Source: Clostridia bacterium | GTDB taxonomy: Bacteria; Bacillota; Clostridia; Oscillospirales; CAG-382 | NCBI GenBank assembly: GCA_017630915.1 | Contig: JAGBUH010000115.1 | Coordinates: 1-41,544, forward strand | Direction of reading: 5' to 3' | DNA length: 41,544 nt | In this document: piece by piece, positions 4,668 through 27,213 of the stretch | Layout of the letters: each line of letters starts with the position of its first letter | Numbering within the stretch: position 1 is the first letter of the stretch | The notes under the pieces: model-generated | The model's input: only the letters and a program-made list of their open reading frames with translations | Database searches by the model: none | Told to the model about the DNA's origin: nothing | Translations under genes and position numbers: made by a program

Positions 4668-4871
4668 ATGGAAAAAAACTTTTTAAATATAATTGCATCT
4701 TTAAGCAAGTGGGTTATGGGGACAAAGATATCCACCTTCCTCGTTCTACAAGATTCGAATATTTGGAAGATTGGCTTTATATCTGTGTGCTTTTTGATTA
4801 TTATATCTGCAATAATTGTTTTACTTATAAAAATTAAAATGACTGAAAAAAAGAAGAGGGAAAGAAAATGA
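4668..4871 (+). CDS. Small single-pass membrane protein (67 aa), hypothetical
   Basis: AAGGAG RBS directly after a consensus promoter; one hydrophobic segment plus a KKKRERK tail; stop overlaps the next ATG. Confidence 0.6.
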   Translation: MEKNFLNIIASLSKWVMGTKISTFLVLQDSNIWKIGFISVCFLIIISAIIVLLIKIKMTEKKKRERK

Positions 4872-5767
4872 AAAAGACATTTGTTTTTATCTTTACGCTT
4901 ATGTTTATGATTTTATCGTGTGTTAATGTTTTGGCAGAAAGTAATGTTGATGCATCACTTGACGTTAGCTATTCTTACAACACCGAAACCGAAAGAATTG
5001 CAATTTCTGCTTTTTTGGTTGATATTAAGGCAGAAGAAGGCATTATAAGTGTGGAATATGATATAAAATACGATCCTAATGTTCTAAAACTTGTAAAAGC
5101 CGAAGCGGCTTATCCCGAAAGATGGGATAATTATATTAAAAACGGCTCCATTGAAGATTTATCGTATGATCAAGGAGGAGGCGTTTATAGTTGGATTTTT
5201 GTTGTAGCTCCTGTCGGAATCGGTATCACTGAAGATAATGAACTTGGCATCAATCTTGAATTTGAACCTATAAAAAAAGAAACTACCAAAGTTGAATTGC
5301 AATATAAGCATTTGTTAAGCGAAGAAACCGAAAACGGTATGGCAATTGATATGTTTGATATTTCTGGTAGCAACGCAACGATAAATATCAACTTTGATAA
5401 ACCTGCTGAACCTGATATTGAAAAAAGCGATATTTCTATTCAAGACCCAAACTCTTCCGAATCTGTAAATTCCGAAGGTACTTCTTCTGAATCAAGTTAT
5501 GTTCCGCCTATATCAAATGATCCTATAACAAGCGGGGATGCAAGCGGTGATAATTGGCCCTGGGATAGCGACGAGATGATTGTCATGCCGTCTATTGATG
5601 TTGAAATTAGTGCCGCGAATGGTAGTGAGATGAATGTTTCTTCTGCTGACAGTGCGGGTGAAGAAGATGCAAACGGTTGGTTGGTTTGGGCACTTGTTGG
5701 TGTTGGCGTTGTTGCTGTTGTAATAGCAACTGTTGTTATTATGAAATCCAAAAGAGGCAATAAATGA
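4868..5767 (+). CDS. Membrane-anchored cohesin-like surface protein
   Basis: Signal peptide; beta-sandwich-type domain with cohesin-like GIISVEYDIKYDPNVLKLV and ITEDNELGINLEF; Ser-rich linker; C-terminal TM helix plus KSKRGNK tail. Confidence 0.7.
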   Translation: MKKTFVFIFTLMFMILSCVNVLAESNVDASLDVSYSYNTETERIAISAFLVDIKAEEGIISVEYDIKYDPNVLKLVKAEAAYPERWDNYIKNGSIEDLSYDQGGGVYSWIFVVAPVGIGITEDNELGINLEFEPIKKETTKVELQYKHLLSEETENGMAIDMFDISGSNATININFDKPAEPDIEKSDISIQDPNSSESVNSEGTSSESSYVPPISNDPITSGDASGDNWPWDSDEMIVMPSIDVEISAANGSEMNVSSADSAGEEDANGWLVWALVGVGVVAVVIATVVIMKSKRGNK

Positions 5768-6372
5768 TTAAATTCATACGAGAAAATAGTGGTATTATTG
5801 TCAAATTTATGCTTACGCATCTTGTAATGTCGTTGCTTGGTTTGATGGTAGGTCTTGCTGTGCTTACCCTCGAAAGCGAAACGGTTGGTATCAGTTCTAT
5901 CGCTTTGATTGCAAGCGCATTTACAATCGGTTTGATGTGTTTTATGCACTATGATGATTCTTTTTTCTGCGCAGTTAAAGAGGGTATACAATTACGCGGC
6001 GAAGGCAAAAGGCCCGATACTTTCAAAGGCTTAAAAATTGCTTTGATTGGTTATTCGCCTGTGATTTTAATCGGCCTTGTCGCCGTCGGTGTTGTGATTT
6101 TTACTCCCGAGGGGCATGATGCCACGCCAATCCCCTTATTGCTCTTCTATTTCTGTCAAGGTAGTTTTTTGTGTTTATATAAACTTATCGATTATATTGG
6201 TATTATTGGTTATATCCTTGTTACTTTGTTGCCTGCGATAATATCGAGTACACTTGGATATGCAATCGGATCAAAAGACAAAACCTTACGCGGTATGTTA
6301 GGCATGAACGTGAAACCTCCGTTTGACGGGCCTTTGGAAAGAAAGCCCAAGAATAGAGATAAAGACGAATAG
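5764..6372 (+). CDS. Hypothetical multi-pass membrane protein
   Basis: 202-aa ORF with about 5 hydrophobic segments, translationally coupled (ATGA) to the upstream gene. Confidence 0.8.
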   Translation: MIKFIRENSGIIVKFMLTHLVMSLLGLMVGLAVLTLESETVGISSIALIASAFTIGLMCFMHYDDSFFCAVKEGIQLRGEGKRPDTFKGLKIALIGYSPVILIGLVAVGVVIFTPEGHDATPIPLLLFYFCQGSFLCLYKLIDYIGIIGYILVTLLPAIISSTLGYAIGSKDKTLRGMLGMNVKPPFDGPLERKPKNRDKDE

Positions 6373-6395
6373 CAAACGTTTAGTTTTCATATAAT
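6367..6395 (+). promoter_or_regulatory. Candidate sigma-E (mother-cell sporulation) promoter of cwlD
   Basis: GAATAGC(6367-6373)-14 bp-CATATAAT(6388-6395) fits the sigE consensus kmATAww-N14-CATAcaaT. Confidence 0.6.
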
Positions 6396-6424
6396 CTTAC
6401 AAAATTGTTTTATGTGAGGTTTAT

Positions 6425-7168
6425 ATGAAAACTACTGTTTATAAGGAAGCGCGAATAAGTATATATATACTTGCATTTGTTATAGCAGCGACTTTGCTGT
6501 TCTATATATTCGCATCTATGTTCACGTCGGTGGGATATAAAGGATTACGAAAGGCAAAGTCGGCAAATGCTGATGTCTATTCTGATGATATTACTATTAT
6601 TATTGATGCAGGACACGGCGGCGAAGATCCCGGTGCAGTTGATAATGGTTTAATTGAAAAGGAATTGAATTTAGATGTTGCGCTTGTTTTAAATAATATT
6701 CTCATATCTAACGGATATAAAACTGCTCTTACGCGTGATGAGGATATTCTTTTATATAGACAAGGCGAAGAAAATCGCAAAAAGCATTTTGATGTGCGAA
6801 ATAGAGTGGAGTTTGCCAACGAATTTGAAAAAGCTATTTTTGTTAGCATTCACATGAATAAGTTTCCAGCCACATATTGTCGCGGTTTGCAAACTTTTTA
6901 TTCGGAGAACAATGCACAAAGTAAAATATTTGCAGATTCAATACAAGAAAATTCGCGTTTGCTTCAAACCGATAATAAACGTCTTGTAAAATCCGGTAAC
7001 GAAACTATTTATCTTTTGGAAAACCTTGATATACCTGCTGTTTTGGTTGAGTGTGGTTTTCTATCTAATAAAGAAGAAGCCCAAAGGCTTTCTGATAAAG
7101 AATATCAAAAAGCACTTGCTTTTACAATCTATTGCGGACTTGTTGAATGTTTGGAGAAAATTGAATGA
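6425..7168 (+). CDS. cwlD: N-acetylmuramoyl-L-alanine amidase (Amidase_3), germination-specific CwlD-like
   Basis: N-terminal TM; IIIDAGHGGEDPGA, EKELNL, SIHMN, VECGFLSN..EA..L....YQ; sigE-type promoter upstream. Confidence 0.8.
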   Translation: MKTTVYKEARISIYILAFVIAATLLFYIFASMFTSVGYKGLRKAKSANADVYSDDITIIIDAGHGGEDPGAVDNGLIEKELNLDVALVLNNILISNGYKTALTRDEDILLYRQGEENRKKHFDVRNRVEFANEFEKAIFVSIHMNKFPATYCRGLQTFYSENNAQSKIFADSIQENSRLLQTDNKRLVKSGNETIYLLENLDIPAVLVECGFLSNKEEAQRLSDKEYQKALAFTIYCGLVECLEKIE

Positions 7169-8535
7169 AGACTGAATTTATATGCGAAAACTGTGGTTAC
7201 GTTGCTTCAAAATGGTATGGGCGTTGTCCTCAGTGTGGCGAATGGAATTGTTTTTCCGAACGTGAAAGCGAAGTTGCTGTATCGGTCAAAACAAAAAAAT
7301 CGCGTCCCAATAATTCAGCGACTACCGAAAAACCCAAATCTGCTCGTATTAAAGATATTTCATTCAATGAAAAGGAACGAACCGGTACGGGAATTGGCGA
7401 ATTTGACCGCGTACTTGGTGGTGGCATAGTCGCCGGATCGGTTGTTTTACTTTCGGGTGAACCGGGAATAGGGAAGTCTACCCTTTTGTTGCAGATATGC
7501 AGTCAACTTGGCAATCACGGCAAAGTTTTGTATATTACCGGTGAAGAATCATCGGCACAGATAAAGTTAAGATGTAGACGTCTTGGTGTTGATAACGATA
7601 ACGTATTTATTTTAAGCGAAAATAATATTGATAGTATCATAACGGAAATTAACACAATAGCTCCCGAAGTTGTAATTATCGACTCTATCCAAACTATGTA
7701 TGACGATAATTATCCTTCGTCGCAAGGTAGCGTTACACAAGTGCGGCAGTGTGCATTACGCCTTATCGGAAAAGCAAAGGAAGATGGTGTTTCAATGCTT
7801 TTGGTAGGGCATGTTAATAAAGAGGGTGCTATTGCAGGCCCCAAGGTGCTTGAACACATGGTTGACGCGGTTTTATATTTCGAGGGCGACAAACAACATG
7901 CGTACCGTATTGTGCGTGCCGAAAAGAACCGCTATGGTTCAACAAATGAAATCGGCGTTTTTGAAATGGGCGAGGAAGGTTTGACTGAAATAGAAAAACC
8001 TTCGGAAATGTTGCTCTCACAACGCCCCAAAGGTGTGCCTGGAAATTGTCCCGTTTGCGTGGTGGAGGGAAGTCGTCCCATTATTGCAGAAGTTCAATGT
8101 TTGGTCACTCCAACAGTATATCCAACGCCAAGAAGAATGTCATCAGGGATTGATTATAACCGTACAGCATTGTTGCTCGCAGTGCTCGAAAAACGCCTTG
8201 GTATGAAGTTTTCGTCACAAGACGTATATGTTAATGTGGCAGCAGGCATGCGTTTGATAGAGCCTGCTTGTGATGCCGCTTGCGCTATGGCGATGATATC
8301 GACATATAAAAACATACCGATTCCGGACGATTTGATTGTATTTGGCGAAATCGGACTTGCCGGTGAATGTAGATCAGTTTCGAATACCGGACAGCGCATA
8401 AACGAAGCGGTGCGTTTAGGATTTAAGAGAATTGCTTTGCCGTATCACTCGATAAAATCTATTAAGGCTGTCGAAGGTGTAAATATTATACCGCTTCGTG
8501 GCGTATTTGATTTACTAAAACTTTTAGACGAATAA
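7165..8535 (+). CDS. radA: DNA repair protein RadA/Sms
   Basis: N-terminal C4 zinc finger, GEPGIGKST Walker A, KNRYG motif, Lon-like C-terminal domain. Confidence 0.97.
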   Translation: MKTEFICENCGYVASKWYGRCPQCGEWNCFSERESEVAVSVKTKKSRPNNSATTEKPKSARIKDISFNEKERTGTGIGEFDRVLGGGIVAGSVVLLSGEPGIGKSTLLLQICSQLGNHGKVLYITGEESSAQIKLRCRRLGVDNDNVFILSENNIDSIITEINTIAPEVVIIDSIQTMYDDNYPSSQGSVTQVRQCALRLIGKAKEDGVSMLLVGHVNKEGAIAGPKVLEHMVDAVLYFEGDKQHAYRIVRAEKNRYGSTNEIGVFEMGEEGLTEIEKPSEMLLSQRPKGVPGNCPVCVVEGSRPIIAEVQCLVTPTVYPTPRRMSSGIDYNRTALLLAVLEKRLGMKFSSQDVYVNVAAGMRLIEPACDAACAMAMISTYKNIPIPDDLIVFGEIGLAGECRSVSNTGQRINEAVRLGFKRIALPYHSIKSIKAVEGVNIIPLRGVFDLLKLLDE

Positions 8536-8564
8536 ACGTTCATGATTTATTCCTATTTGATGTT

Positions 8565-9365
8565 ATGTTAAGAGAAAAGTATTGCGTACCTTTTTTGCCA
8601 CAAAATAAAGTCAAACGTGTGTTCGTGTCGGGGATAATGCCTCACGAACTTGTTGATGAACTTAAAAGTATGATGATAAAACCATACGTGCTTGGTAAAT
8701 CGAAGAATATGACCGGCGAACTTGCGTATCATCCTGATATATTAGTTAATAATTTTCGCAAGGGTTTTTGGCTTTGCGAAAATGATGCCGATTATCTTCC
8801 AAAAGGACTTCCGCCTAAATTATTTAGAGAATCTGAAACCGAACTGTCAAATTTATATCCGTTTGATTGTCCGTTCAATAATTTTCGCGCGGGACATGCC
8901 TTGGTATGCGGTAAAAGCGTTGATTATCTGATTAAAGCGTATGCTAATTATGAAGAATTGCTGAGTATATATGTTCCACAGAATTATGCAAAATGTTGTA
9001 CCGTGTTAGTTAATGAAAGCGCGGTTATAACAAGCGATTATTACATTGGAAAAACAATGCGAAAATATGGATACGATGTATTGACTATTACAGATAGTAA
9101 TGATATAGGTCTAAACGGATACAGTCACGGTTTAATTGGCGGTTGTGCAGGAAAAATCGCTGATAATCTTATAGCGTTTACCGGTGATTTGAATAAATAC
9201 CAATATGGTGAAGATATCAGATCTTTTTGTAATAATCATCATGTAGATGTAATGTCGCTTACAAATAAACCAATGTATGACTATGGTGGGATTCTTCCAA
9301 TAACAGAGATAACGTCAAATGTTGATGATGAAGATATCTCGGTAGAATTTATAACAGTTTCATAA
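8565..9365 (+). CDS. DUF6873-family (GME/amidinotransferase-like fold) protein
   Basis: LPQNKV, HPD, YP...FN, QNYAKC, ITSD, GYSHGLIGGCAG motifs; start uncertain (no clear RBS). Confidence 0.7.
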   Translation: MLREKYCVPFLPQNKVKRVFVSGIMPHELVDELKSMMIKPYVLGKSKNMTGELAYHPDILVNNFRKGFWLCENDADYLPKGLPPKLFRESETELSNLYPFDCPFNNFRAGHALVCGKSVDYLIKAYANYEELLSIYVPQNYAKCCTVLVNESAVITSDYYIGKTMRKYGYDVLTITDSNDIGLNGYSHGLIGGCAGKIADNLIAFTGDLNKYQYGEDIRSFCNNHHVDVMSLTNKPMYDYGGILPITEITSNVDDEDISVEFITVS

Positions 9366-9367
9366 AG

Positions 9368-9394
9368 AAAAAGACCTTATATGAGGTCTTTTTT
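9368..9394 (+). terminator. Intrinsic terminator
   Basis: AAGACCTT(9371-9378)/GAGGTCTT(9383-9390) hairpin plus T-tract immediately after the stop codon. Confidence 0.8.
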
Positions 9395-9413
9395 ATTTTA
9401 ATCCATTCCCTAT

Positions 9414-9441
9414 ATTGTATAAAATTTCTATTTTATACAAT
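9414..9441. repeat. Perfect 28-bp palindrome (11-6-11 geometry)
   Basis: ATTGTATAAAA-TTTCTA-TTTTATACAAT between convergent genes; the inverted repeat is certain, its function is unknown. Confidence 0.85.
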
Positions 9442-9483
9442 TGAGTATAAAATTTTGCAGGGAAAAGCTTACTCCCCATTTTT

Positions 9484-9514
9484 AAAGCCAACGTGAAAAT
9501 CACGTTGGCTTTTT
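9484..9514. terminator. Intrinsic terminator hairpin after the DUF624 gene
   Basis: AAAGCCAACGTGA(9484-9496)/TCACGTTGGCTTT(9500-9512), 13-bp stem. Confidence 0.8.
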
Positions 9515-9519
9515 GAATT

Positions 9520-10509
9520 TTATCCTCTATCTACAAATACAGGTTCTGTTGTGGACCAAGGGTCTTCGGGACGTTCATCGGGATGATCTTCATAATAAGG
9601 ATCAATTACATATCGTTTTATAATCGGATATGCGCAGTAAACTCCAATATATGTTAAGAATGAAAAAGCAAACATACATAACAGTAAAACAGAAAACTGC
9701 GGTAAAAGAATGTATGCATACAGGAATGCAAAAATAAAAGCAAGAGCGCCAATCAATCCGATGAAATTGCGCTTGAAGCCAAGCACAGTTAACAAAAATG
9801 CATTCTTAATCATCTTCCCTATTGTCATTTCACATGTTACAAGTTGAAGGTAGATGTAGAATCTCATTATATAATAAATAACTGCAAACACTATTGAAGC
9901 ATAGAAAAACACCAAAAATATAAATTCTGCAGATTCAGAACGATATGCAAAAATGTCATATACTAACAAACATATCAGCAAAGCGTCCATTATACCGATA
10001 ACGATACCTTGTTTAAAGTTTCGTTTTATAGAATAAAAGAAGTCGTTCCAAGTATCAACGTGTTCTCCGGTGCAAACATTTCTGATGTTATATACCATGC
10101 CAATGGTAGATAAGCCAAACGTAATGACCAATGTGAAAATGCTATACATCAAATAACGAGATATATCAGAAATTACTCTCCATTCGACCGATGCACAATA
10201 AATACTGTATAGTGATGCTATGGCAGGACTACTGTCATTCTTTGTTGCAGCGCTTATTTGCGTATATAGTGGATTTGCAGCGGTAGGAGCTGTATCATCG
10301 AGTATACCCGATAAACCAAACAACGCAACAAATAAAAATATATTACAAAGCGCAAATATCAAATTGGTTGCAGAGAACTTTCCTAACCTTGTTTTTAAAA
10401 GGCGAAAGAAAAAGCCCAAGCCTAATTTCTTATCAAATTCGACCTGTTTTTTTGTGACGCCTTTCCCGGATTTATTTGAACCGGAAAAAAAATCGTATAT
10501 CTTGCCCAT
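9520..10509 (-). CDS. DUF624/YesL-family membrane protein
   Basis: Multiple TM segments; WNDFFYSIKRNFKQG and KMIKNAFLL motifs typical of YesL/DUF624. Confidence 0.75.
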   Translation of the reverse strand: MGKIYDFFSGSNKSGKGVTKKQVEFDKKLGLGFFFRLLKTRLGKFSATNLIFALCNIFLFVALFGLSGILDDTAPTAANPLYTQISAATKNDSSPAIASLYSIYCASVEWRVISDISRYLMYSIFTLVITFGLSTIGMVYNIRNVCTGEHVDTWNDFFYSIKRNFKQGIVIGIMDALLICLLVYDIFAYRSESAEFIFLVFFYASIVFAVIYYIMRFYIYLQLVTCEMTIGKMIKNAFLLTVLGFKRNFIGLIGALAFIFAFLYAYILLPQFSVLLLCMFAFSFLTYIGVYCAYPIIKRYVIDPYYEDHPDERPEDPWSTTEPVFVDRG

Positions 10510-10518
10510 TATTTATCC

Positions 10519-11421
10519 TCATGCGCGTGGGTGGAATTTAATGTAACTGTTTTTCATTTTATCTTTAAGGAATTGAGCATAACGTTGCGTAGAAGCAATG
10601 TCGGAATGCCCAAGAATCACTTGAATATCATGTATGTCGGCGCCGTTTTCGAGCAAATGCGCCGCAAAAGAGTGTCTTAAAGTGTGCGGGGTTATGGACT
10701 TTTTTATGCCCGCCGACTGCGTGTAACTCTTTAAAATCTTCCAAAAACCCTGTCTTGTCATTCTTTCGCCGGTTACATTCACAAAAAGTGCTTTTTCGCG
10801 CGAATCTGAAACGAACATTTTTCTCGATTTATCCAAATAAGTGGAGACAGCTTTAACCGCAATAGGATAAATCGGGATAAAACGTTCCTTATCGTCAGAA
10901 CCGCAACGTATGAAAGAAAGTTGCGTATTTACGTCATCAATATTTAATCCGATAAGTTCGGACACTTTGATGCCCGTAGCATAAAGAATTTCCAACATTG
11001 CTTTATCACGCATACCTTTTATATCGGTTGTATCGGGTTGTGCCAACAATGTTTCGACCTCTTTGGATGTTAATACCATGAGTTCTTTCTTCTCTACCTT
11101 GTCATTATGAACCGCTTTTGCAGGGTTTGATTCACAAATGCCGTTAGATATTAAATATTGATACAAACTTCTCATCGATGACAACGTACGGCTGACAGAA
11201 GACGCAGAAAGACCTTTTGCGGTCAGATAACGCTTGAAATCGGCTACAGTATCGGAATCAACAGAAGAAAAATCATCAATACGTTCGTCAAGAGCATAGT
11301 CGAGAAACTTTTCGAGGTCGCGTCTATATGCTTGGACAGTATTATCAGAGGATTTTTTGACATCCCTTAAAAAACCGAGAAAATTATTAAGTTGTGAGGT
11401 TAGATTTTCACAACCAATCAT
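10519..11421 (-). CDS. xerD: XerD-type tyrosine recombinase with altered catalytic residues
   Basis: AYRRDL, RQGFW (XerD RQ signature), PHTLRHSFA, LGH, STQRY, C-terminal HPRA; spoIIM-xerD synteny; TGIKVSEL replaces TGxRVSEL. Confidence 0.9.
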   Translation of the reverse strand: MIGCENLTSQLNNFLGFLRDVKKSSDNTVQAYRRDLEKFLDYALDERIDDFSSVDSDTVADFKRYLTAKGLSASSVSRTLSSMRSLYQYLISNGICESNPAKAVHNDKVEKKELMVLTSKEVETLLAQPDTTDIKGMRDKAMLEILYATGIKVSELIGLNIDDVNTQLSFIRCGSDDKERFIPIYPIAVKAVSTYLDKSRKMFVSDSREKALFVNVTGERMTRQGFWKILKSYTQSAGIKKSITPHTLRHSFAAHLLENGADIHDIQVILGHSDIASTQRYAQFLKDKMKNSYIKFHPRA

Positions 11422-11426
11422 TTTAA

Positions 11427-12047
11427 CTATCCTACCATTAAAAAATTGATAATATAACTATAAGTAATTGATATTAAATAAGTATCAATACAAGAAAAAA
11501 GTAAAAATAAAACTATGGGTTTGGATTTTTGGTATGCACTCTTCCCTTTTGAGGTGAACTTTGCAAAGAGAAATGATTCACACAAAAGTATTATTACCAA
11601 AAAGGAAAAAACTGATAAGAGACATAAAAACAACAAATAAATCATTCTATCAGAAAAAGTAAAATATGAATGCATACTATATTGTATAACGCCTATAAAG
11701 AAAGCATACATACAACATAAGAATGCAGGAATGATTTTTCCAAAAATTGAAAACGACGAAAGTGTCGTAATCACCAAAGAGCCGATTAGGAAAATGAGCG
11801 TCGTTTCATCAAAAAGAATATCATAAACATAACAAAATACAAAACTGCTTTTAGCGGCAATGCATGAGCCTAAGAATATAAATAAAAAATATTCTATCAA
11901 AAAGAAAGATAGTAACCTACTTCGTTTTAAAAACAAAACTTTTAAAAGGTCATACAATTTTTGTAAGATATTTGTTACATATCCTTTGTTGGTGTTAGTA
12001 TCGCCGACATAGATCGTTAGTGCACGAGAAGTATTGTCCACATTCAT
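11427..12047 (-). CDS. Membrane protein, probable divergent stage II sporulation protein M
   Basis: About 5 TM segments, 206 aa, directly upstream of xerD as in the conserved spoIIM-xerD order; sequence motifs are weak. Confidence 0.5.
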   Translation of the reverse strand: MNVDNTSRALTIYVGDTNTNKGYVTNILQKLYDLLKVLFLKRSRLLSFFLIEYFLFIFLGSCIAAKSSFVFCYVYDILFDETTLIFLIGSLVITTLSSFSIFGKIIPAFLCCMYAFFIGVIQYSMHSYFTFSDRMIYLLFLCLLSVFSFLVIILLCESFLFAKFTSKGKSAYQKSKPIVLFLLFSCIDTYLISITYSYIINFLMVG

Positions 12048-12090
12048 TTTTTATCACCAATAAAGGTTTATGCGGACAAGTATAAAATAA

Positions 12091-12912: not shown

Positions 12913-12948
12913 ATTATGTCCCTCGCATTTCGAATTCGTGCAATATTT

Positions 12949-12977
12949 ATAATAATATAAATCTCTTATTATTTCAA
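12949..12977 (-). promoter_or_regulatory. Candidate sigma-A promoter for proC
   Basis: TTGAAA-17 bp-TATTAT on the minus strand. Confidence 0.55.
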
Positions 12978-13008
12978 GTGTTTTTAATAAAATAATCCAA
13001 AATTGTGG

Positions 13009-18443: not shown

Positions 18444-18456
18444 AATATCTCCATGT

Positions 18457-19407: not shown

Positions 19408-19426
19408 ATTTTTTCTCCAAAAATAA

Positions 19427-20368
19427 TTATTCGAAACTTTTTGCCTGTTCTTGCAATCTTTTTTCAAATTCTGCTGCGGTATTGAATCCCATTTTCTTTT
19501 GGCGATGATTCATTGCCGCAATTTCTATAATTACAGCGAGGTTACGTCCCGGTTTCACGGGAACGGTTATAGAGGGAATTTTAATGCCTAAAATTTCGGT
19601 AAACTCGGAATCCAAACCGAAGCGGTCGTAAAGCTTTCCTTGCACCCAGTTTTCGAAGTTGATAATGAGGTCTATTTTTTCGGAGTCCTTAACCGAACCC
19701 ATACCGAATATACGGCGTACATCGACAATACCGATGCCTCGAAGTTCGATATAGTGTCTTATTAGTTCGGGAGCACTACCTACAAGTGAAATAGCGGATA
19801 CTTTTTTAATCTCAACTGCATCATCAGCGATCAATCTATGACCACGTTTTACAAGCTCGATTGCAGTTTCGCTTTTACCGATGCCGCTATCACCAAGTAT
19901 CAAAACACCTTCACCGTATACTTCGACAAGAACACCGTGTTGCGTTATACGTTCCGCCAACGAAACGTTTAATCCCGATGTAACCGCCGCCATTAGTTCG
20001 GAAGTTTGCTTTGTACTAGTAAACAAAGGTGTGTTGCTTAATTTTGCTTCTTCGAGCAATTCGGGAAATACTGTCAATGATGTTGTCACAATAACCGCTT
20101 TTACCGAACAAGCGAAGAATTTTTTTAGCGATTCGCGTCGTTCTTCATTGGAAAGCGACGCCAAGAAGCTATGCTCCATATTTCCGATAAGTTGAATACG
20201 TTCATTTTCAAAATTCGAAAAGAAACCTGCCAAAGGAAGTCCGGGACGGCTTAAATCCGAACGGAAAACAAGAATAGATTCATAGTTATCGGGAACATAA
20301 ACAATATCAAGATTATACTTTTCGGCAACTTCCGAAAGTTTTATACTATACGTTTTGCTTTGCATCAA
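19427..20368 (-). CDS. hprK: HPr kinase/phosphorylase
   Basis: RPGL, HGVLVEVYGEGVLILGDSGIGKSETA, LIADD, ELRGIGI, PVKPGRNLA. Confidence 0.97.
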   Translation of the reverse strand: MMQSKTYSIKLSEVAEKYNLDIVYVPDNYESILVFRSDLSRPGLPLAGFFSNFENERIQLIGNMEHSFLASLSNEERRESLKKFFACSVKAVIVTTSLTVFPELLEEAKLSNTPLFTSTKQTSELMAAVTSGLNVSLAERITQHGVLVEVYGEGVLILGDSGIGKSETAIELVKRGHRLIADDAVEIKKVSAISLVGSAPELIRHYIELRGIGIVDVRRIFGMGSVKDSEKIDLIINFENWVQGKLYDRFGLDSEFTEILGIKIPSITVPVKPGRNLAVIIEIAAMNHRQKKMGFNTAAEFEKRLQEQAKSFE

Positions 20369-21098
20369 TAATGTCTCCTATTTCCTCAGAAGAAGCATCT
20401 GCACTATTTTTCGATTTGTATGCAAGAGAACGATATGAGAAGTATCGTTGTAGGTTAAGAGCACCGAAGATTAACAATAAAATGGTTATAGGCGCAACAA
20501 TTGATATTACTGCAACCGCGTCGCTGTTGCCGAAAATGTTTGTCCAAATTTTAAAATATGCGTTTAACAGTTTAAAGAAAGCGTTCCCGAAGCCTTTTAA
20601 AATATTTACAACTCCATCACGTAAACCGCCGTCTTTTGAAAGTTCAAACGTTTTTTGTATAAAACCTTTGCCCTCATAGCCAACGCGTTCGAGAAAGCCA
20701 ATAGCAAAAATTTGGTATCCGCATACAACCGAACCGCAAATGGCAAAAAACAACATATACAACGCGCGCCAAAAATACGGTATTGAATTTTTTTTGTACG
20801 ATTCGGCAGACGGCGTAATAACACCATCATCTTTTGCAAAATAAGCCCAATTGCCAGAAAATGCAAAGGGTTTAATCCCCTCTTTTTCAAGGGATTTAAA
20901 ATACTTCATGGCGTCTTCGCTATTGGGCGAGAAACCAAGCTGTTGTATCGAATAATTGAATTTTTTGCCCTCGTGTTTTGTAAAAGTGTATTTAGAATCT
21001 TTTACACTTGTGAGAGAATAACCTTGCTCACCCATTGTATTAAGCCATTTTTCTTCACTGATTTTAGAAAAGAAAATTTTGAAAACAGAAGAATTCAT
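20346..21098 (-). CDS. DUF2812-domain membrane protein
   Basis: EEKWLNTMGEQGY..YTF N-terminal signature plus C-terminal TM helices; start 21098 after GGAGG. Confidence 0.7.
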   Translation of the reverse strand: MNSSVFKIFFSKISEEKWLNTMGEQGYSLTSVKDSKYTFTKHEGKKFNYSIQQLGFSPNSEDAMKYFKSLEKEGIKPFAFSGNWAYFAKDDGVITPSAESYKKNSIPYFWRALYMLFFAICGSVVCGYQIFAIGFLERVGYEGKGFIQKTFELSKDGGLRDGVVNILKGFGNAFFKLLNAYFKIWTNIFGNSDAVAVISIVAPITILLLIFGALNLQRYFSYRSLAYKSKNSADASSEEIGDIIDAKQNV

Positions 21099-21119
21099 AT
21101 AATCGCCTCCTATCTTATA

Positions 21120-21148
21120 ATTATAACCCAATAATATATAATTGTCAA
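21120..21148 (-). promoter_or_regulatory. sigma-A promoter of the DUF2812-hprK-glcK-lon-engB-lysA operon
   Basis: TTGACA-17 bp-TATAAT on the minus strand. Confidence 0.85.
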
Positions 21149-21182
21149 TCCAAAAACAATAAACATTTATTATAAAAAGCTA

Positions 21183-21211
21183 TTGAAAACTATCGGTTGA
21201 TGTGATATAAT
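21183..21211 (+). promoter_or_regulatory. sigma-A promoter (extended -10) of SRP RNA/dnaX
   Basis: TTGAAA(21183-21188)-17 bp-TATAAT(21206-21211) with upstream TG. Confidence 0.85.
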
Positions 21212-21230
21212 ACAAAAGAATGAGATATGA

Positions 21231-21507
21231 AATATGACCATACTGACCGGGGAGTTAGCGGTGCCTTGTACCCACAATCCGCTATAGTGGGGGTGAACAC
21301 CTATCGAGGGCACAGTTTGTGTCGTTGCGCCGAATGCACCTTGTTGAGAGGCGGGTCCTTGCGCAATTCGCACCTGCGAATTATGTCAGGTGGGGAACCA
21401 AGCAGCATTAAGCAGACCTGCGGATGTGCCGTAAGGGTGCCTGTCTTGAGAGGTAATTTCGGTTTCCGGGCGGAAGTTATGTTCGACATAGGGTGTATGG
21501 TCATATT
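21231..21507 (+). ncRNA. ffs: Signal recognition particle RNA, large (Alu-domain) bacterial type
   Basis: Alu-like GGGGAGTTAGCGGTGCCTTGTACCCACAATCCGCTATAG; helix 8 TCAGGTGG-GGAA-CCAAGCAGCA; closing helix AATATGACCATAC/GTATGGTCATATT; scr-dnaX-ybaB-recR synteny; exact ends approximate. Confidence 0.95.
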
Positions 21508-21545
21508 TTGTATCTCATAATTTTTAACATATGGAGGAATTCATT

Positions 21546-23069
21546 GTGTATCTTTCGCTATATAGAAAGTGGCGTCCGCGTACTTTTGATGAAATTTGCG
21601 GACAGGAACATATTACCTCCATTTTGAGAAAACAATGTGATACAAACAGAGTTTCGCATGCGTATCTCTTTTGTGGTACTCGCGGTACCGGTAAAACTTC
21701 TTCCGCGAAGATTTTAGCAAAAGCTGTCAACTGCGAGAATCCCATTAACGGCAATCCCTGTAATAACTGTTCATCCTGCAAAGCCATTGATTCTGGAAGC
21801 GCAACCGACGTTCTTGAAATCGATGCTGCAAGTAACAACAGAGTTGACAATGTGCGCGATTTGCGTGACGAAGTGGTATATCCCCCATCGGTATTAAAAA
21901 AGCGCGTTTATATCATCGATGAGGTTCATATGCTTACGGACAGCGCGTTCAACGCCCTGTTAAAAACACTTGAAGAACCGCCGGAATATGTTGTTTTTAT
22001 ACTCGCAACAACCGAAATCAATGAACTGCCGCCTACAATTATTTCAAGATGTATTCGATTTGATTTTTCGAGAATTGATACAGAGGCGGTTAATAAAAGG
22101 TTAGTATACGTTGCCGAACAAGAAGATATTCATCTTGCAGACGGCTCTGCCGAACTTTTGGCTCAACTTGCTGATGGTTCTATGCGTGATGCGTTATCGC
22201 TTTTGGAAGCCTGCTCCAACGGAAGCGTAGGTGAACTCACCACCGAAACGATACGTAACGTGTTAGGTCTTGCGGGTGACGAAACCATATATTCCCTGCT
22301 GTCTGCAATATCAGATAAAAACGTTCCTGTTGCCATGGATATCGTTGAACAAGTACACCGTTCTTCAAAAGATATTTCGGTATTTATTGATGATTTATCA
22401 TTAGCGGTACGAGATATAATTATAGAAAAGCAACTTGTTAAATTCGGAAAACGCGGAAAATTAAAATCCGAATATTTAAATGTATGCGAAAAATTCACTC
22501 CCGAACAATTATTTTATATAAGTTCGGTTCTTGAAGAAACTCAAAGTCGAATTTCGAGATATTCGGTGAATAAGCGTGTCGTTTTGGAAATGTCTGTAAT
22601 CAGAATGTGCGATAAAACGGTTTCTGACTCACCCAAAGCACTTGCAGCACGCATTTCCGAGCTTGAAAAAAGGTTAGCAGTTCTTTCTGCAACAGGTTTA
22701 AATAAAAATTTTATTGAAACCGAAAGTATAGTTGAAACTCCCGAAATAATAAAATCCGAGGAGAATGTTGCGACGAAGGATATCTCACATGAAAGAATAC
22801 CGTTTCCCAACATTTCAGAAATATACGAATTTATTTCGGACAACCCTTCCCTGCTTTCTTTTCTAAAAAAATCGAAAGTTTATTTGCAAGGCGACGTTGT
22901 AATAATAGCATCCGAGCAATTTACAATTGACATGATTAAAATTGAAAGCGGCAATATGCTTAACGATGCATTTGTTTCAACACTCGGCAAATCGGTAAAC
23001 ATAACTTTTGAAGAGGCGAAACAAGAAACAAAAAACGAAAGTCAAGTTTCATTCATGGATGAACTATGA
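21546..23069 (+). CDS. dnaX: DNA polymerase III subunit gamma/tau
   Basis: LYRKWRPRTF, GTRGTGKTS, zinc cysteines, IDEVHML, NALLKTLEEPP, GSMRDA; GTG 21546 after GGAGG is the likely start. Confidence 0.96.
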   Translation: MYLSLYRKWRPRTFDEICGQEHITSILRKQCDTNRVSHAYLFCGTRGTGKTSSAKILAKAVNCENPINGNPCNNCSSCKAIDSGSATDVLEIDAASNNRVDNVRDLRDEVVYPPSVLKKRVYIIDEVHMLTDSAFNALLKTLEEPPEYVVFILATTEINELPPTIISRCIRFDFSRIDTEAVNKRLVYVAEQEDIHLADGSAELLAQLADGSMRDALSLLEACSNGSVGELTTETIRNVLGLAGDETIYSLLSAISDKNVPVAMDIVEQVHRSSKDISVFIDDLSLAVRDIIIEKQLVKFGKRGKLKSEYLNVCEKFTPEQLFYISSVLEETQSRISRYSVNKRVVLEMSVIRMCDKTVSDSPKALAARISELEKRLAVLSATGLNKNFIETESIVETPEIIKSEENVATKDISHERIPFPNISEIYEFISDNPSLLSFLKKSKVYLQGDVVIIASEQFTIDMIKIESGNMLNDAFVSTLGKSVNITFEEAKQETKNESQVSFMDEL

Positions 23070-23095
23070 TAACGATATAATTAAGGAGAAACAAA

Positions 23096-23446
23096 GTGAA
23101 AGTAAGACTTCCCAAAGGTATGGGCGGCGGCCCTTCTGATATGAACTCCCTTATGCGTCAAGCACAAAGAATGCAAGAAGATATGGCGGCTAAACAAGCT
23201 GAATTGGAAGAAAAGGAATATGAAATCAGCGCAGGCGGCGGAGTAGTTAACGTTAAAATTAACGGAAAGAAAGAGATCTTATCTATTTCTATCGAACCCG
23301 AAATTATCGATCCCGACGATAAAGAAACTCTTGAAGATATATTGGTTGCCGCTGTAAACGAAGCGATTAAACGTGTAGAAGATACTAACTCCGACGAGAT
23401 GTCAAAAATCACCGGAAATATCCCCGGAATGAACGGTTTGTTTTAA
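23096..23446 (+). CDS. ybaB: YbaB/EbfC nucleoid-associated protein
   Basis: QAQRMQ, AGGGVV, DDKETLEDILVAAVNEA; dnaX-ybaB-recR order. Confidence 0.95.
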   Translation: MKVRLPKGMGGGPSDMNSLMRQAQRMQEDMAAKQAELEEKEYEISAGGGVVNVKINGKKEILSISIEPEIIDPDDKETLEDILVAAVNEAIKRVEDTNSDEMSKITGNIPGMNGLF

Positions 23447-23461
23447 TCGGAGGCTTTTTAT

Positions 23462-24049
23462 ATGACACCGTCACTCGAAAAACTCGTAAACAGTTTTGCT
23501 TCTTTACCCGGAATCGGCAGAAAGAGTGCCGCTCGCCTTGCTTATCGAGTTATCGAAATGAGCGAAGACGAAGTCAAAACATTTGTATCGTCAATAGTTG
23601 AAGCAAAAAAAAGTGTGCATCTTTGTTCGGTGTGTCAAGCATATTCTGAGGATGACGTATGTTCGGTTTGTTCTAATGAACATAGAAGTTTAGATACGAT
23701 TATTGTTGTCGAAGACAATAAAGCTCTTGAAGCTATTGAAGAAACGCATGAATATAACGGCAAATATCATGTGTTGCATGGTGTCATTTCTCCTGTTGAC
23801 GGAATCGGTCCCGAACAATTAAAAATCAAAGAATTACTTCACCGTTTAGATGATAATGTAAACGAGGTAATTATTGCCACGAACCCAAGCGTCGAAGGTG
23901 AAGCTACGGCTATGTATCTTGGAAGATTGATAAAGCCTTTTGAAAAAAAAGTAACGCGTCTTGCTTATGGTTTGCCCGTAGGCGGAACCTTGGAATATGC
24001 TGATTCCGTTACTTTGATGAAAGCAATTGAAGGCAGAACCGAAGTTTAA
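23462..24049 (+). CDS. recR: Recombination mediator RecR
   Basis: LPGIGRKSAARLA HhH, C4 zinc finger, YHVLHG, ATNPSVEGEATA Toprim domain. Confidence 0.97.
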   Translation: MTPSLEKLVNSFASLPGIGRKSAARLAYRVIEMSEDEVKTFVSSIVEAKKSVHLCSVCQAYSEDDVCSVCSNEHRSLDTIIVVEDNKALEAIEETHEYNGKYHVLHGVISPVDGIGPEQLKIKELLHRLDDNVNEVIIATNPSVEGEATAMYLGRLIKPFEKKVTRLAYGLPVGGTLEYADSVTLMKAIEGRTEV

Positions 24050-24055
24050 TTTAAT

Positions 24056-24097
24056 AAAAAATCAGCAGTAACAAATACTTGTTACTGCTGTTTTTTT
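24056..24097. terminator. Bidirectional intrinsic terminator
   Basis: CAGCAGTAACAA(24063-24074)/TTGTTACTGCTG(24079-24090) with A-tract and T-tract. Confidence 0.9.
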
Positions 24098-24099
24098 AA

Positions 24100-27000
24100 T
24101 TATTGAACTACATAAGATTTAAACGCAATACGTTTAAGCAAAAGAAAGTCAAATACATCTATTGTATCGTTTCTGTCGATATTACCTCTTGAATACTGAA
24201 CTTCATCAAATTGATATGTTTTGAAGCAATAACGTTTTAGCAAAAGGTAATCAAAAACGTCGATAACCTCATCGTCATTGATGTCTGCAAATTCTTTAAT
24301 TTTTGGATTGATTAAATGAGCATATTCGAGGGATTTGATAATTGGACGCAATTTAAAGATAGTGTCGGCGGCAGACAAATCGATGTTTGCAGAGTTGAGA
24401 ACATCTTGCAAATTATTCCATTCTGCTTCGCAGTATTCTTCTTTAACAAGGCTATTATAGATATCAATCCAACTTTCACATTCTTCCATGGCGACATCGT
24501 AGGTATATCCCCACAAAACAGTTGTATCGGAGCTGCCGAGCCAATACTCGCTAAATCCGTCAGGTTGAGCTTCTGCTTCGCAATAAATTTCTGTTAAATC
24601 AAAGCAACCGTTGAATGCATTTTGACCAATATTTGTTATAGATTTGGGAATAATTAGTGCGGCAATTTCAAGATTTTCGAAAGCATTGTTACGTATTTCT
24701 GTAACAGGTAATCCCATATAAACAGACGGAATTGTTACGTTGTTGTCTGTGCCTATATAACTGTCAATATAGCAATATGTTCCGTCTTCTCCTAATTTAT
24801 AAATGATACCATTTGTACCATGTTCCGGAACGGGATCGGGCGAAGTGTCGGTTGATTCTTTAACGGTTGCAGTTCCGTTAATACATGCACTATTGTCAGT
24901 AAGAACAACCTTGTCGAGAATCAATTTATCTCCAATTTTAAGCGCTCTGGCAACCGCTCTCGCTTCCCAATTTTCGTAAATTCCGTTATCGTCTTGCGGA
25001 CGGTCGCCAGCTGAATGAACAACTAATGCAATTTGCCCTTCTTTTAGATTCACGTTAGTATAGTCATGGTAAGGATTGTCAATAACACTGTTTACCGAAT
25101 AAACCATATCATTGATTCTATCAAGAATAATAGTTGTGGACCACATAGGATAGCAGGCATAATAAAAATCGTTAGAAGTAATAATTATGGTGTCTTCCCC
25201 ATAGATTATGCCGTTCACCGAATCAATATTAAATACAAAATCGTATACACTTATTTCTGGAATCTCCCATTCAGGTTCAGAGGAATCATCTGAGGATGTA
25301 TCATTGGATGATTCATTAGAAGAGGTATCTTCGGATACATCATCGGAAGATTCATCAGAAGAGGTATCTTCGGATACATCATCGGAAGATTCATCAGAAG
25401 AGGTATCTTCGGAGGACTCATCAGAGAAAACGTCATCCGAGGAGGTATCGCTTGAAATGTCTTCGGACACATCATCAGAGGATTCTTCAATAGAAGTGTC
25501 CTCGGAGATATCATCGCTTGAAACTTCGACAGAGGAATCATCGCTTGAAGTGTTTTCCGATATGCCATCAGAGGATTCTTCGGTAGAAGTGTCCTCGGAG
25601 ACATCATCGCTTGAAACTTCGACAGAGGAATCATCGCTTGAAGTGTTTTCCGATATGCCATCAGAGGATTCTTCGATAGAAGTGTCCTCGGAGACATCAT
25701 CAAAAGACTCGTCAGAAGAGGTGTGCTCGGAGGATTCTTCCGGCGGTGCAACCGAGGTTGGGTCATAAGTTACAATTGCGTATCCGCCGTTACCGTAAAA
25801 GAAATCCAACCCAACGTCATTATCATTCAATGCTGCTAAAATGCTATCGTTAGGAATATAAACACCGAAATCGTCATCTGCATCTTCGTTAGCGGTAAAG
25901 GTGAATTCAAATACAATAACATCGTCATCGGTAATAGAATCAAAGAATAGTGTCGAGGTTAAAACCGTAACATCAATAACTCCGTCATTTTCCGGAACCG
26001 CTTGAACCCCCTCCTTTAAATCAGCCGTTGTCAAATCTTTAAAGTTGCTCTTCACAATGACAAAACTTTCCCAATTGCCACCTAATTCATTGATATCAAT
26101 ACACACAAGAGAACCTTGGTCGCGTTCATTTATGTCATTTGTAAGCATTAGTTTCGTATTATCGTATTTGAACAAAAATTTAAGATAGTCAAGACCGTAC
26201 TCGGAAGTGATGTTGCGCACTGAAACAGTAATAACAATATCGTCGCCTGCTTTATAACTTTCAGGTGCGGTTATAACAAGATCAAACATAGGATTTTCAT
26301 TCGATGCGCCGACTAATCCAATAAGTTCATTTTCCAATTCTGGATTTACCGAAATATCAGAAGAAGTTTCGTCGCTTGAGTCGTTACTTGTATCGCTTGA
26401 TGTTTCACTTGATTCGTCACTTGAAGCATCAATAGAACTATCAGAAGATTCAGAAATAATATCCGAATCATCTAATGATCCGTCAGAAGAAATATCAGAA
26501 GAAATGTTCGACGATTGTTCGTCTGCGTCGCTTGAATCATCAAGGATTGACGTATCTTCGTTAATTATACAATAGCCTGCGTTTCCCTTAAATGTGGTAA
26601 AGCCACTATTGGTATTTACACCACCTTGAACACTACTATTAGGAATATAAATACCTACTTCGCCAGTTGCATCGTCATTTACTTTAAATGTAAATTCAAA
26701 AACAATAATATTGTCTTCTGTAATGGAATCAAATTCAATGCTTGTTGTTAAAATCGAAACATTAACAACGCCATCATTATACGGAACAGCTTGTACGCCT
26801 GCACGAAGTTCATCGGGAGTCAGTTCGGAATAATTGCTATGTATTTGGCCATAACTCTCCCAATTGCCACCCAAACTATTTATATCTATACAAACAAGAT
26901 TACCTTGGTTTCCCTCATCAATATCGTTTGTAATGAAGAGTTTAGTCGAATCATAATAAAAGTCAAAATAGACATAATCAATTGGAGCGTCATAGGCAAT

Positions 27001-27213
27001 ATTTACAACGCTGACAGTAACAGTAATATCGTCCCCCGCTCTATAATTTACAGGTCCTTCGATAAGTAAATCAAATTTTGAATCATCATTACGAACACCT
27101 ACTGATTCAATAAGTTCCTGTTCCAATTCAGAAGCCGAAGTGGCTAATAATGAGAACGAAACAAGAAGTGCTACCATAATGAAGGAAAGTACGCAAACAA
27201 GAATACGTTTCAT
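24100..27213 (-). CDS. Secreted scaffoldin-like protein: 2 cohesin-like domains, Ser/Asp linkers, unknown domain, BspA-type LRR, helical module, C-terminal dockerin
   Basis: Signal peptide; duplicated ~190-aa domain (aa ~29-218 and ~292-482; AGDDIxxTVSVxNI..YDxTKL..FEFTF); IPKSITNIGQNAFNGC LRR; dockerin duplication DINDDEVIDVFDYLLLKR/NIDRNDTIDVFDFLLLKR. Confidence 0.8.
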   Translation of the reverse strand: MKRILVCVLSFIMVALLVSFSLLATSASELEQELIESVGVRNDDSKFDLLIEGPVNYRAGDDITVTVSVVNIAYDAPIDYVYFDFYYDSTKLFITNDIDEGNQGNLVCIDINSLGGNWESYGQIHSNYSELTPDELRAGVQAVPYNDGVVNVSILTTSIEFDSITEDNIIVFEFTFKVNDDATGEVGIYIPNSSVQGGVNTNSGFTTFKGNAGYCIINEDTSILDDSSDADEQSSNISSDISSDGSLDDSDIISESSDSSIDASSDESSETSSDTSNDSSDETSSDISVNPELENELIGLVGASNENPMFDLVITAPESYKAGDDIVITVSVRNITSEYGLDYLKFLFKYDNTKLMLTNDINERDQGSLVCIDINELGGNWESFVIVKSNFKDLTTADLKEGVQAVPENDGVIDVTVLTSTLFFDSITDDDVIVFEFTFTANEDADDDFGVYIPNDSILAALNDNDVGLDFFYGNGGYAIVTYDPTSVAPPEESSEHTSSDESFDDVSEDTSIEESSDGISENTSSDDSSVEVSSDDVSEDTSTEESSDGISENTSSDDSSVEVSSDDISEDTSIEESSDDVSEDISSDTSSDDVFSDESSEDTSSDESSDDVSEDTSSDESSDDVSEDTSSNESSNDTSSDDSSEPEWEIPEISVYDFVFNIDSVNGIIYGEDTIIITSNDFYYACYPMWSTTIILDRINDMVYSVNSVIDNPYHDYTNVNLKEGQIALVVHSAGDRPQDDNGIYENWEARAVARALKIGDKLILDKVVLTDNSACINGTATVKESTDTSPDPVPEHGTNGIIYKLGEDGTYCYIDSYIGTDNNVTIPSVYMGLPVTEIRNNAFENLEIAALIIPKSITNIGQNAFNGCFDLTEIYCEAEAQPDGFSEYWLGSSDTTVLWGYTYDVAMEECESWIDIYNSLVKEEYCEAEWNNLQDVLNSANIDLSAADTIFKLRPIIKSLEYAHLINPKIKEFADINDDEVIDVFDYLLLKRYCFKTYQFDEVQYSRGNIDRNDTIDVFDFLLLKRIAFKSYVVQ
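25310..25413. repeat. 39-bp (13-aa) tandem repeat in the scaffoldin linker, about 2.7 copies
   Basis: GATTCATyAGAAGAGGTATCTTCGGA recurs at 25310, 25349 and 25388. Confidence 0.9.
25473..25701. repeat. 93-bp (31-aa) tandem repeat in the scaffoldin linker, about 2.4 copies
   Basis: GAGGATTCTTCrrTAGAAGTGTCCTCGGAGA recurs at 25478, 25571 and 25664; units are near-identical. Confidence 0.9.

Follow-up and report, generated by a model that had tools for sequence, protein, structure and literature searches.

The stretch of DNA analysed here (referred to as the window; 41,544 nucleotides, contig JAGBUH010000115.1 of assembly GCA_017630915.1) belongs to a Clostridia bacterium of the CAG-382 lineage within the Oscillospirales, whose genome of 1.9 Mb was assembled to 82% completeness in 256 contigs, the window being contig C181. 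Two of its genes, encoding P0001 (4868..5767, forward strand) and P0002 (24100..27213, reverse strand), carry cohesin-like domains, and the initial annotation had proposed that they form a non-cellulosomal cohesin-dockerin surface assembly made up of an anchor and a branching adaptor. At the level of the parts, this proposal turned out to be well supported.

P0001 comprises 299 amino acids and features an N-terminal signal peptide, a beta-rich ectodomain of predicted cohesin fold (aa ~28-190; 4949..5437, forward strand), a Ser/Asp/Glu-rich stretch, which is disordered in the structure model (aa 194-280, predicted local distance difference test (pLDDT) <50), and a hydrophobic C-terminal transmembrane helix (aa ~272-295, 272-295 in the model; 5681..5752, forward strand) ending in the basic tail KSKRGNK. 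The motifs previously listed for the anchor were found at aa 52-75 (DIKAEEGIISVEYDIKYDPNVLKL), 86-89 (WDNY) and 120-132 (ITEDNELGINLEF). The topology signals are directly visible in the protein and, together with the fold of the ectodomain, agree with the earlier description of a transmembrane-anchored protein with one cohesin, i.e., a putative membrane-anchored monovalent scaffoldin with an acidic stalk. The same layout of signal peptide, single cohesin and C-terminal helix, with neither an LPXTG motif nor a surface-layer homology (SLH) domain, was kept in 3/3 homologues; relatives of similar length numbered three in a collection of 5.8 billion proteins (55, 50 and 41% identity). Anchoring of P0001 by a sortase was ruled out, as LPXTG is missing before the helix, despite the presence of four sortase-like open reading frames (ORFs) in the genome.

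The assignment of the P0001 ectodomain to the cohesins is supported by its predicted fold. Cohesins were the best Foldseek matches of the model, namely 2vo8 (E 3.6e-6) and 5lxv (E 8.5e-6), with some leukocidin chains lower down, and 23 of the 30 best ESM Atlas feature matches of aa 25-192 were Cohesin clusters. The structure reached template modelling (TM) scores of 0.63-0.70 to the Atlas clusters listed, most of which carry the Cohesin family, and the homologue P0005 has a precomputed Pfam Cohesin call. A search of PDB sequences with the P0001 family profile returned no match at E <= 1.

P0002 (1037 amino acids) is predicted to be a secreted divalent adaptor scaffoldin, in which a signal peptide is followed by two cohesin repeats of ~190 residues each, long Ser/Asp linkers, a domain of an unnamed family, a BspA-type leucine-rich repeat (LRR) unit, a helical region and a dockerin. 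This agrees with the annotated architecture of a secreted adaptor with two cohesins and a C-terminal dockerin: the signal peptide is present, a membrane helix is absent and the dockerin repeats lie at aa 977-1028. Likewise, the listed motifs were recovered at aa 334-357 (NITSEYGLDYLKFLFKYDNTKLML), 381-384 (WESF), 427-439 (ITDDDVIVFEFTF) and 164-176 (ITEDNIIVFEFTF). In a six-frame Pfam search, for which the curated cut-offs are 24.1 bits for Cohesin (PF00963) and 22.9 bits for Dockerin_1 (PF00404), repeat 1 (aa 30-220; 26554..27126, reverse strand) scored 21.1 bits and repeat 2 (aa 290-490; 25744..26346, reverse strand) 26.6 bits as Cohesin, the two being 54% identical to each other.

For repeat 2, phmmer retrieved 104 relatives at E <= 1e-3 from 1.84 billion representatives, 60 of them at E <= 1e-10. 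A profile built from 28 sequences of the repeat family matched the solved cohesins 5nrk_A (4.8e-5), 6kg8_A (6.2e-5) and 5lxv_A (3e-4), and also solved dockerins, the latter via the tails of many of its ~350-residue members. The AlphaFold2 model of repeat 2 reached a pLDDT of 95.6, and the PDB matches listed by Foldseek, headed by the ScaC cohesin of Ruminococcus flavefaciens (5lxv, E 1.5e-7), were all cohesins or cohesin-like modules except rank 26 (9ifr, a CLIPPER domain). Taken by profile and predicted fold, the domain of P0001 and both repeats of P0002 are thus supported as cohesins, as the initial annotation had anticipated, the predicted structures showing the flattened beta-sandwich (jelly-roll) of solved cohesins, with Pfam by itself remaining marginal.

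The idea that the same divergent domain occurs in both genes stood only in part, as both proteins do have cohesins, which are however of distinct subtypes without pairwise similarity. Since BLASTP of P0001 against P0002 detected no similarity (best E 2.5) and the link appeared at the profile level only (hhalign of the two family profiles, signal peptides included: probability 97%, E 1.2e-10, 167 columns, 15% identity), we assign the two proteins, on the basis of these comparisons, to different cohesin subtypes. The adaptor-type modules are extended by a helix at the N-terminus and by the insertion of a helical loop, neither of which occurs in classical cohesins of 140 residues.

The C-terminus of P0002 (aa 975-1037; 24103..24291, reverse strand) had been proposed to be a dockerin, and Pfam Dockerin_1 scored on either side of its cut-off here, with 26.3 bits in the six-frame search and 20.8 bits by hmmscan. 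It consists of two tandem segments, each with a 12-residue EF-hand-like loop of the type D/N-x-D/N-x-D/N...D followed by a helix (DINDDEVIDVFDYLLLKR, NIDRNDTIDVFDFLLLKR), and can be aligned in register, without a gap in either repeat, to 54 further dockerins of the same genome.

The window is not the only place where such domains are encoded. The six-frame Pfam search of its own genome counted 63 Dockerin_1 matches, all but one of which exceeded the cut-off. They are distributed over 62 ORFs, P0002 among them, and at least 25 of these ORFs run off a contig end. The 61 dockerin-hit ORFs outside the window, together with one cohesin-only ORF, were scanned against Pfam, and Dockerin_1 re-scored at E <= 1e-4 in 58/61. 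The content of these 58 ORFs is dominated by F5_F8_type_C domains (21 ORFs), followed by Glug (7), LRR_5 (6), SH3_3 (4), Metallophos (3, two with a purple-acid-phosphatase N domain), GDSL lipase/esterase (3), DUF4855 (3), GDPD (2) and DUF4886 (2). One each carries NAGPA, CHAP, Peptidase_M23, Glucosaminidase (GH73), a transglutaminase core, Cthe_2159, a beta-helix with SLH, a cadherin-like domain or Flg_new, while two have cohesins and 11 a dockerin only, six of the latter being fragments of <120 aa. BspA-type LRR proteins, expected among the dockerin clients, are represented by the six ORFs with LRR_5.

Glycoside hydrolase (GH) families GH48, GH9 and GH5 were not matched anywhere in the 82%-complete genome, the GH48 blank being weak as its control search stayed silent in all 14 control genomes; apart from the GH73 Glucosaminidase, no Glyco_hydro family was detected by Pfam on the 58 dockerin ORFs. 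The latter also holds for the families of mucin-glycan glycosidases (GH2, 20, 29, 84, 95, 101 and others), although 21 ORFs carry the F5/8-type-C (CBM32-like) domain. GH13 occurs in two ORFs of the genome (contigs C193 and C230), neither of which is among the 62 dockerin-hit ORFs, and neither carbohydrate-binding module (CBM) family CBM26 nor an amylase-dockerin fusion was found in the assembled part. CBM3 was not reported by Pfam on P0001, P0002 or the three further cohesin proteins described below, and four large, unannotated clients (L055, L064, L074, L079) matched PDB sequences through their dockerins alone. As neither GH48, GH9 nor GH5 was detected and both GH13 ORFs lie outside the dockerin set, the assembled genome, as judged from its sequence, does not fit a cellulosome or an amylosome; clients in the form of standard GH48/GH9 cellulases, which would have spoken for an ordinary cellulosome, were encountered neither in the genome nor on the 58 ORFs. 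In the window itself, the earlier statement that neither GH nor CBM is recognisable also held for the 32 other ORFs scanned (E <= 0.001).

Besides P0001 and P0002, three further cohesin proteins were found. P0120 (L099, contig C118:6524-10010, 3' end open) starts with two ~220-aa repeats that match no Pfam family, followed by a cohesin sharing 51% identity with repeat 2 of P0002 and by choline-binding wall repeats; its domains make it a putative anchoring scaffoldin of a second type. P0009 (contig C197) joins a single adaptor-subtype cohesin (51% identical to P0002 repeat 2 and 47% to repeat 1) to a weak F5/8-type-C match and a dockerin, while in P0121 (contig C145) the dockerin is accompanied by two Pfam-positive cohesins; the P0001 profile gave no significant match to P0121. 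Multi-cohesin, dockerin-bearing scaffoldins, i.e., P0002 and P0121, are accordingly encoded alongside 58 dockerin ORFs without cellulase families, and the genome appears to specify a multi-scaffoldin system with at least two surface attachments, via a membrane helix and via wall-binding repeats. Two proteins of unusual build may be mentioned in this context. L042 (contig C111:1-1670, reverse strand) joins an N-terminal dockerin to a pectate-lyase-like beta-helix and an SLH domain, and as a wall-bound plug carrier it could tether cohesin proteins in reverse. P0010 from another organism (1085 aa) begins with repeated domains that score as Pfam Sortase (37.3 bits), carries two adaptor-subtype cohesins and ends in a transmembrane helix, which suggests a membrane-anchored divalent scaffoldin of different build.

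On these grounds, P0001 and P0002 are very probably structural parts of a genome-wide, non-cellulolytic cohesin-dockerin system for surface display, whose binding steps we infer throughout. P0001 would be exported via its signal peptide and kept in the membrane by its C-terminal helix, so as to present its single cohesin outside the cell on an acidic stalk of ~90 residues. The secreted P0002 could capture one dockerin-tagged protein with each of its two cohesins, presumably in a calcium-dependent manner as known for cohesin-dockerin pairs, and its LRR unit may add adhesion. Via its C-terminal dockerin, the loaded adaptor would then plug into another cohesin, and the clients of such a system would be the ~58 other dockerin ORFs of the genome.

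As to which cohesin may receive the adaptor, the dockerin itself gives a hint. Among 55 aligned dockerins of the genome, 46 have Ser as the first of the two residues before the conserved D-Y in both repeats, the pairs SV/ST being the commonest (19 times); in clostridial dockerins, these two residues are the putative cohesin-contacting positions. P0002 is the only one of the 55 with Val-Phe in both repeats, and nine deviate from Ser, among them all three cohesin-bearing dockerin proteins (P0002, P0009 and P0121). Because the cohesin-bearing proteins all fall into this group of nine, the odd residues of the adaptor fit a separate specificity, with scaffoldin-scaffoldin contacts distinct from client-scaffoldin contacts. 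Val-Phe is kept twice in P0006, the closest orthologue of P0002. Two SH3_3-dockerin ORFs (L086 and L092, contigs C115 and C157) show Val-Gly in repeat 1, Ser-Leu or Val-Phe in repeat 2 and M/VRR in place of VKR, and may represent a third specificity group.

A direct contact between the P0002 dockerin and the P0001 cohesin, as put forward in the initial annotation, is one option, which we regard as rather doubtful. It is favoured by the cohesin subtype of P0001, which differs from that of P0002, P0009 and P0120, and by the deviation of the adaptor dockerin from the bulk. Complex prediction for P0001 aa 26-192 with P0002 aa 905-1037 returned 0.08 in both runs, compared to a mark of 0.32; with alignments of four rows and no controls, this value speaks neither for nor against binding.

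The downstream neighbour of P0001 encodes P0122 (5764..6372, forward strand), a polytopic membrane protein of 202 aa from a family without name, whose start overlaps the P0001 stop by 4 bases. No Pfam family was assigned at E <= 0.1, and its Atlas clusters are annotated as 'hypothetical' only. The order of P0001 orthologue, P0122 orthologue and an Amidase_3 gene was kept in 7/7 related loci (L101-L107), which marks P0122 as a conserved downstream partner. With identities of 26-41% for P0001, as against 65-75% for P0122 and 56-59% for Amidase_3 in these loci, the anchor appears to be a fast-evolving gene within a stable neighbourhood. Upstream, a promoter-like site (TTGACA-17-TATAAT; 4616..4644, forward strand) matches the sigma-70 consensus, and that only, at 12/12 positions, 224 bases before the P0001 gene; a scan of 2.9 kb gave 16 sites of this kind, as against 12.2 expected from shuffles, this one being the sole perfect match. 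Further upstream, positions 94-3131 (forward strand) encode an ordinary pyruvate formate-lyase-like glycyl radical enzyme with its radical-SAM activase. The GC content of the window lies at 34-42% (2-kb windows), and DNA runs containing the region derive from animal and bovine gut metagenomes of several studies; the run search listed no RNA runs.

Dockerins are general in this lineage, as they occurred in 47/47 genomes of the genus and 144/150 sampled genomes of the family (scored with up to 39 per genome). P0001-like ORFs, mostly of 250-300 aa, were present in 33/47 genomes of the genus and 53/150 of the family; by genus, they were detected in the dockerin-rich g1 (33/47) and g2 (8/10) and in none of the sampled genomes of g5 (0/14), g9 (0/13) and g11 (0/10), most of which have few dockerins. 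P0002 has a narrower record. Protein searches yielded three orthologues, P0006 (~70% identity) as well as P0007 and P0008 (46-47%), and when the genus was queried with the C-terminus of P0002, many matches to LRR/dockerin paralogues came up, and genome G129 (39% identity) alone yielded a clear full-length orthologue. Related loci in genome contigs numbered zero with P0002 and one (L108) with P0008 as query.

The remaining parts of P0002 shed light on its possible origin. Its LRR unit (aa ~795-900; 24514..24831, reverse strand) scored 32.9 bits for Pfam LRR_5 (cut-off 27.7), and as the C-terminal 200 aa with LRR unit, helices and dockerin share 40-43% identity with four of the genome's LRR_5-dockerin ORFs, P0002 looks like an LRR client that gained two cohesins. 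The domain of the unnamed family (aa 650-790; 24844..25266, reverse strand) has no Pfam match at E <= 0.1, is present in P0006 and missing from P0007 and P0008; in P0008, about five Cys-rich repeats (HWKxCECG) replace these 140 aa, for which reason the segment between cohesins and LRR unit seems to be swapped among species. The linkers (aa 222-290 and 490-645) consist of Ser/Asp/Glu-rich near-repeats, and the paralogue P0009 has perfect SSDVVEE/D repeats; as such repeats are prone to assembly collapse in metagenome bins, the linker lengths of P0002 may be inexact.

Several observations weigh against the reading of the two proteins as parts of the display system proposed here. At the level of the domains, P0001 stayed below the Cohesin cut-off with 16.3 bits by hmmscan and 17.5 bits in the six-frame search, its structure model has a mean pLDDT of only 62.7 (58-93 in blocks of the domain) and was derived from an alignment of four sequences, the P0002 dockerin reached 20.8 bits by hmmscan, which is under the cut-off, and hmmscan of the whole P0002 did not report a Cohesin at E <= 1, though the six-frame search found it. 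The missing BLASTP similarity between the two proteins belongs here as well. At the level of the genes, P0001 and P0002 lie 19 kb apart, separated by housekeeping genes (radA, a XerC/D-type recombinase, proC, a pseudouridine synthase, a lysA-like gene, a GTPase, lon, a ROK kinase, hprK, dnaX, ybaB and recR), and because the same spacing of ~19 kb recurs on one contig of G129, their proximity is conserved synteny in a housekeeping region and no functional operon. P0001-like genes are, furthermore, much commoner than full P0002 orthologues, from which it would follow that P0001 cannot depend on the P0002 adaptor. An exclusive pairing of the two is weakened by this distribution and by the wall-bound P0120 as an alternative anchor; moreover, the putative recognition positions are occupied by different residues in P0007 and P0008. 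Finally, the finding of a cargo without glycosidases is a result of Pfam only, obtained with about half of many client proteins unannotated and a genome that is 82% complete.

Some of these points would equally suit the same system with another wiring, in which the partners of the P0002 dockerin are adaptor-subtype cohesins, i.e., the P0002 repeats themselves, P0009 or the wall-bound P0120. The adaptor would in this case form polymers or be attached to the cell wall, and P0001 would directly bind ordinary client dockerins. P0120, with its adaptor-subtype cohesin (51%) and wall-binding repeats, offers a ready alternative anchor, the wide spread of P0001-like genes relative to P0002 orthologues is in line with this, and for the mucinolysome scaffoldins of Limousia, binding of the dockerins both to the anchor and to the scaffoldins' own cohesins was predicted (PMC12997984). 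However, the P0002 dockerin differs from the 46/55 Ser-type dockerins exactly at the putative recognition positions, which suggests a partner other than that of the bulk clients. We consider this wiring a realistic option, albeit not the probable one. A further departure from the proposed display system would be that P0001 is no dockerin receptor and that its cohesin-fold ectodomain works with P0122 and Amidase_3 in cell-envelope biology, so that the likeness to scaffoldins is one of fold only. The triad in 7/7 loci with the high conservation of P0122 and the 4-base gene overlap in the window, the sub-threshold Pfam score, and the warning in a preprint, as far as its available text goes, that cohesin-like beta-sandwich profiles also catch non-cohesin folds (bioRxiv 10.64898/2026.02.05.704116) could be read in this way. 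Against it, Foldseek and Atlas place the domain with cohesins rather than other beta-sandwiches, P0005 has its precomputed Cohesin call, and P0001 evolves fast beside slow neighbours, as exposed binding proteins do. P0001-like genes, moreover, occur in dockerin-rich genera and in none of the genomes of g5, g9 and g11, a comparison among related genomes in which divergence may hide homologues. Altogether, such a role appears unlikely.

Even less probable, and indeed very unlikely, is that the system is a cellulosome or amylosome of the ordinary type, with glycosidase clients encoded in the 18% of the genome missing from the assembly or hidden in client parts without Pfam annotation. The fragmentation of the assembly with its many truncated dockerin ORFs would allow for this, as would the 11/58 dockerin ORFs without another Pfam domain and the long unannotated stretches in many others. 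It is at odds with the absence of GH48, GH9 and GH5 from 1.9 Mb (with the weak GH48 blank), the location of GH13 outside the dockerin ORFs, the lack of any Glyco_hydro family but GH73 on the 58 ORFs and the PDB matches of the four large clients through dockerins alone. As to what the displayed proteins act on, the recognisable catalytic clients, i.e., GDPD, purple-acid and metallophosphatases, a NAGPA-type phosphodiester glycosidase, DUF4855 and GDSL esterases, are mostly fused to CBM32-like F5/8-type-C domains, and CHAP, M23 and GH73 peptidoglycan hydrolases with SH3 modules are also among the clients. It is conceivable, if improbable, that the complex is built for phosphodiester-linked glycopolymers and bacterial cell walls and not for plant fibre, starch or mucin. 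If so, anchor and LRR adaptor would carry a surface machine for removing teichoic acids, capsules or phosphoglycans from neighbouring microbes or host glycans, a class of substrates that would be new for cohesin-dockerin assemblies.

The initial annotation had regarded the system as undescribed, which does not hold, since transmembrane-anchored single-cohesin scaffoldins, adaptors, LRR modules and mostly non-glycosidase dockerin sets are in print (PMC11557425; bioRxiv 10.64898/2026.02.05.704116); the following comparisons are limited to the accessible parts of the sources cited. R. difficilis has two transmembrane-anchored scaffoldins, cohesins that only structure prediction reveals, 80 dockerin proteins of which hardly any is a lignocellulase, and scaffoldins with LRR, Ig-like and mucin-binding modules, and transmembrane-anchored single cohesins were described in several rumen ruminococci (bioRxiv 10.64898/2026.02.05.704116). 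The likeness to the system described here extends to anchoring by a C-terminal helix, cohesins too divergent for routine annotation, few dockerin-fused lignocellulases and an origin from small-genome gut Clostridia; in contrast, seven amylase-dockerin fusions and CBM26 scaffoldins are known from R. difficilis, whose system was read as starch-oriented (bioRxiv 10.64898/2026.02.05.704116), whereas F5/8-type-C modules, phosphoesterases, Glug and LRR proteins prevail among the clients found here. For H. luporum and C. cibarium, proteins with one cohesin and a transmembrane helix at the C-terminus were further discussed as possible non-SLH anchoring scaffoldins, and such proteins occur in the non-cellulolytic Lachnoclostridium sp. 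MSJ-17 beside a two-cohesin, dockerin-bearing scaffoldin and 39 dockerin proteins (PMC11557425). MSJ-17 hence shares with our system the pair of transmembrane single cohesin and two-cohesin dockerin scaffoldin and the dozens of dockerin proteins (one of them a dockerin-fused lignocellulase in MSJ-17), with the binding partners left open as they are here; it differs in its lineage, in the N-terminal dockerin of its scaffoldin and in that no LRR-module adaptor is proposed in the available part of that study (PMC11557425).

The mucinolysome of Limousia, bacteria annotated as Anaeromassilibacillus or Acutalibacteraceae sp. in source databases, resembles the system described here in its non-cellulose target, its gut Clostridia hosts and the non-glycosidase domains, including peptidases, among its clients, and the C-terminal dockerins of its multi-cohesin scaffoldins are predicted to bind a monovalent surface anchor (PMC12997984). 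This anchor, cSca5, is however sortase-linked (LPXTG), unlike the transmembrane P0001, and the clients of the mucinolysome are mucin-active glycosidases (GH2, 20, 29, 84, 95 and others; PMC12997984), none of which was recognised here by Pfam. The amylosome of Ruminococcus bromii is likewise a non-cellulolytic cohesin-dockerin system of a small-genome gut Clostridia bacterium (PMC4611034); its clients are GH13 amylases, whereas no dockerin-fused GH13 was found here. Among solved structures, R. flavefaciens ScaC, whose cohesin is the best structural match of P0002 repeat 2, is also a cohesin-plus-dockerin adaptor, and Clostridium perfringens possesses non-cellulosomal cohesins (2vo8, 2jh2), the former being the best match of the P0001 model; the sequence identity to 5lxv, 2vo8 and 2jh2 is, however, only 11-18%, at TM-scores of 0.5-0.75.

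The logic of anchor, adaptor and clients has consequently been described before, and what differs here is the client set. For this reason the value of the finding is incremental, unless the substrate proves to be new. It adds a lineage and a client set of CBM32-like modules, phosphoesterases, LRR and Glug proteins and wall hydrolases to the non-cellulolytic cohesin-dockerin systems. For the uncultured, small-genome family of animal-gut Clostridia, it means that ~60 genes per 2-Mb genome would be devoted to dockerin-tagged proteins, and that a membrane-embedded single cohesin appears to be used repeatedly as one surface anchor.

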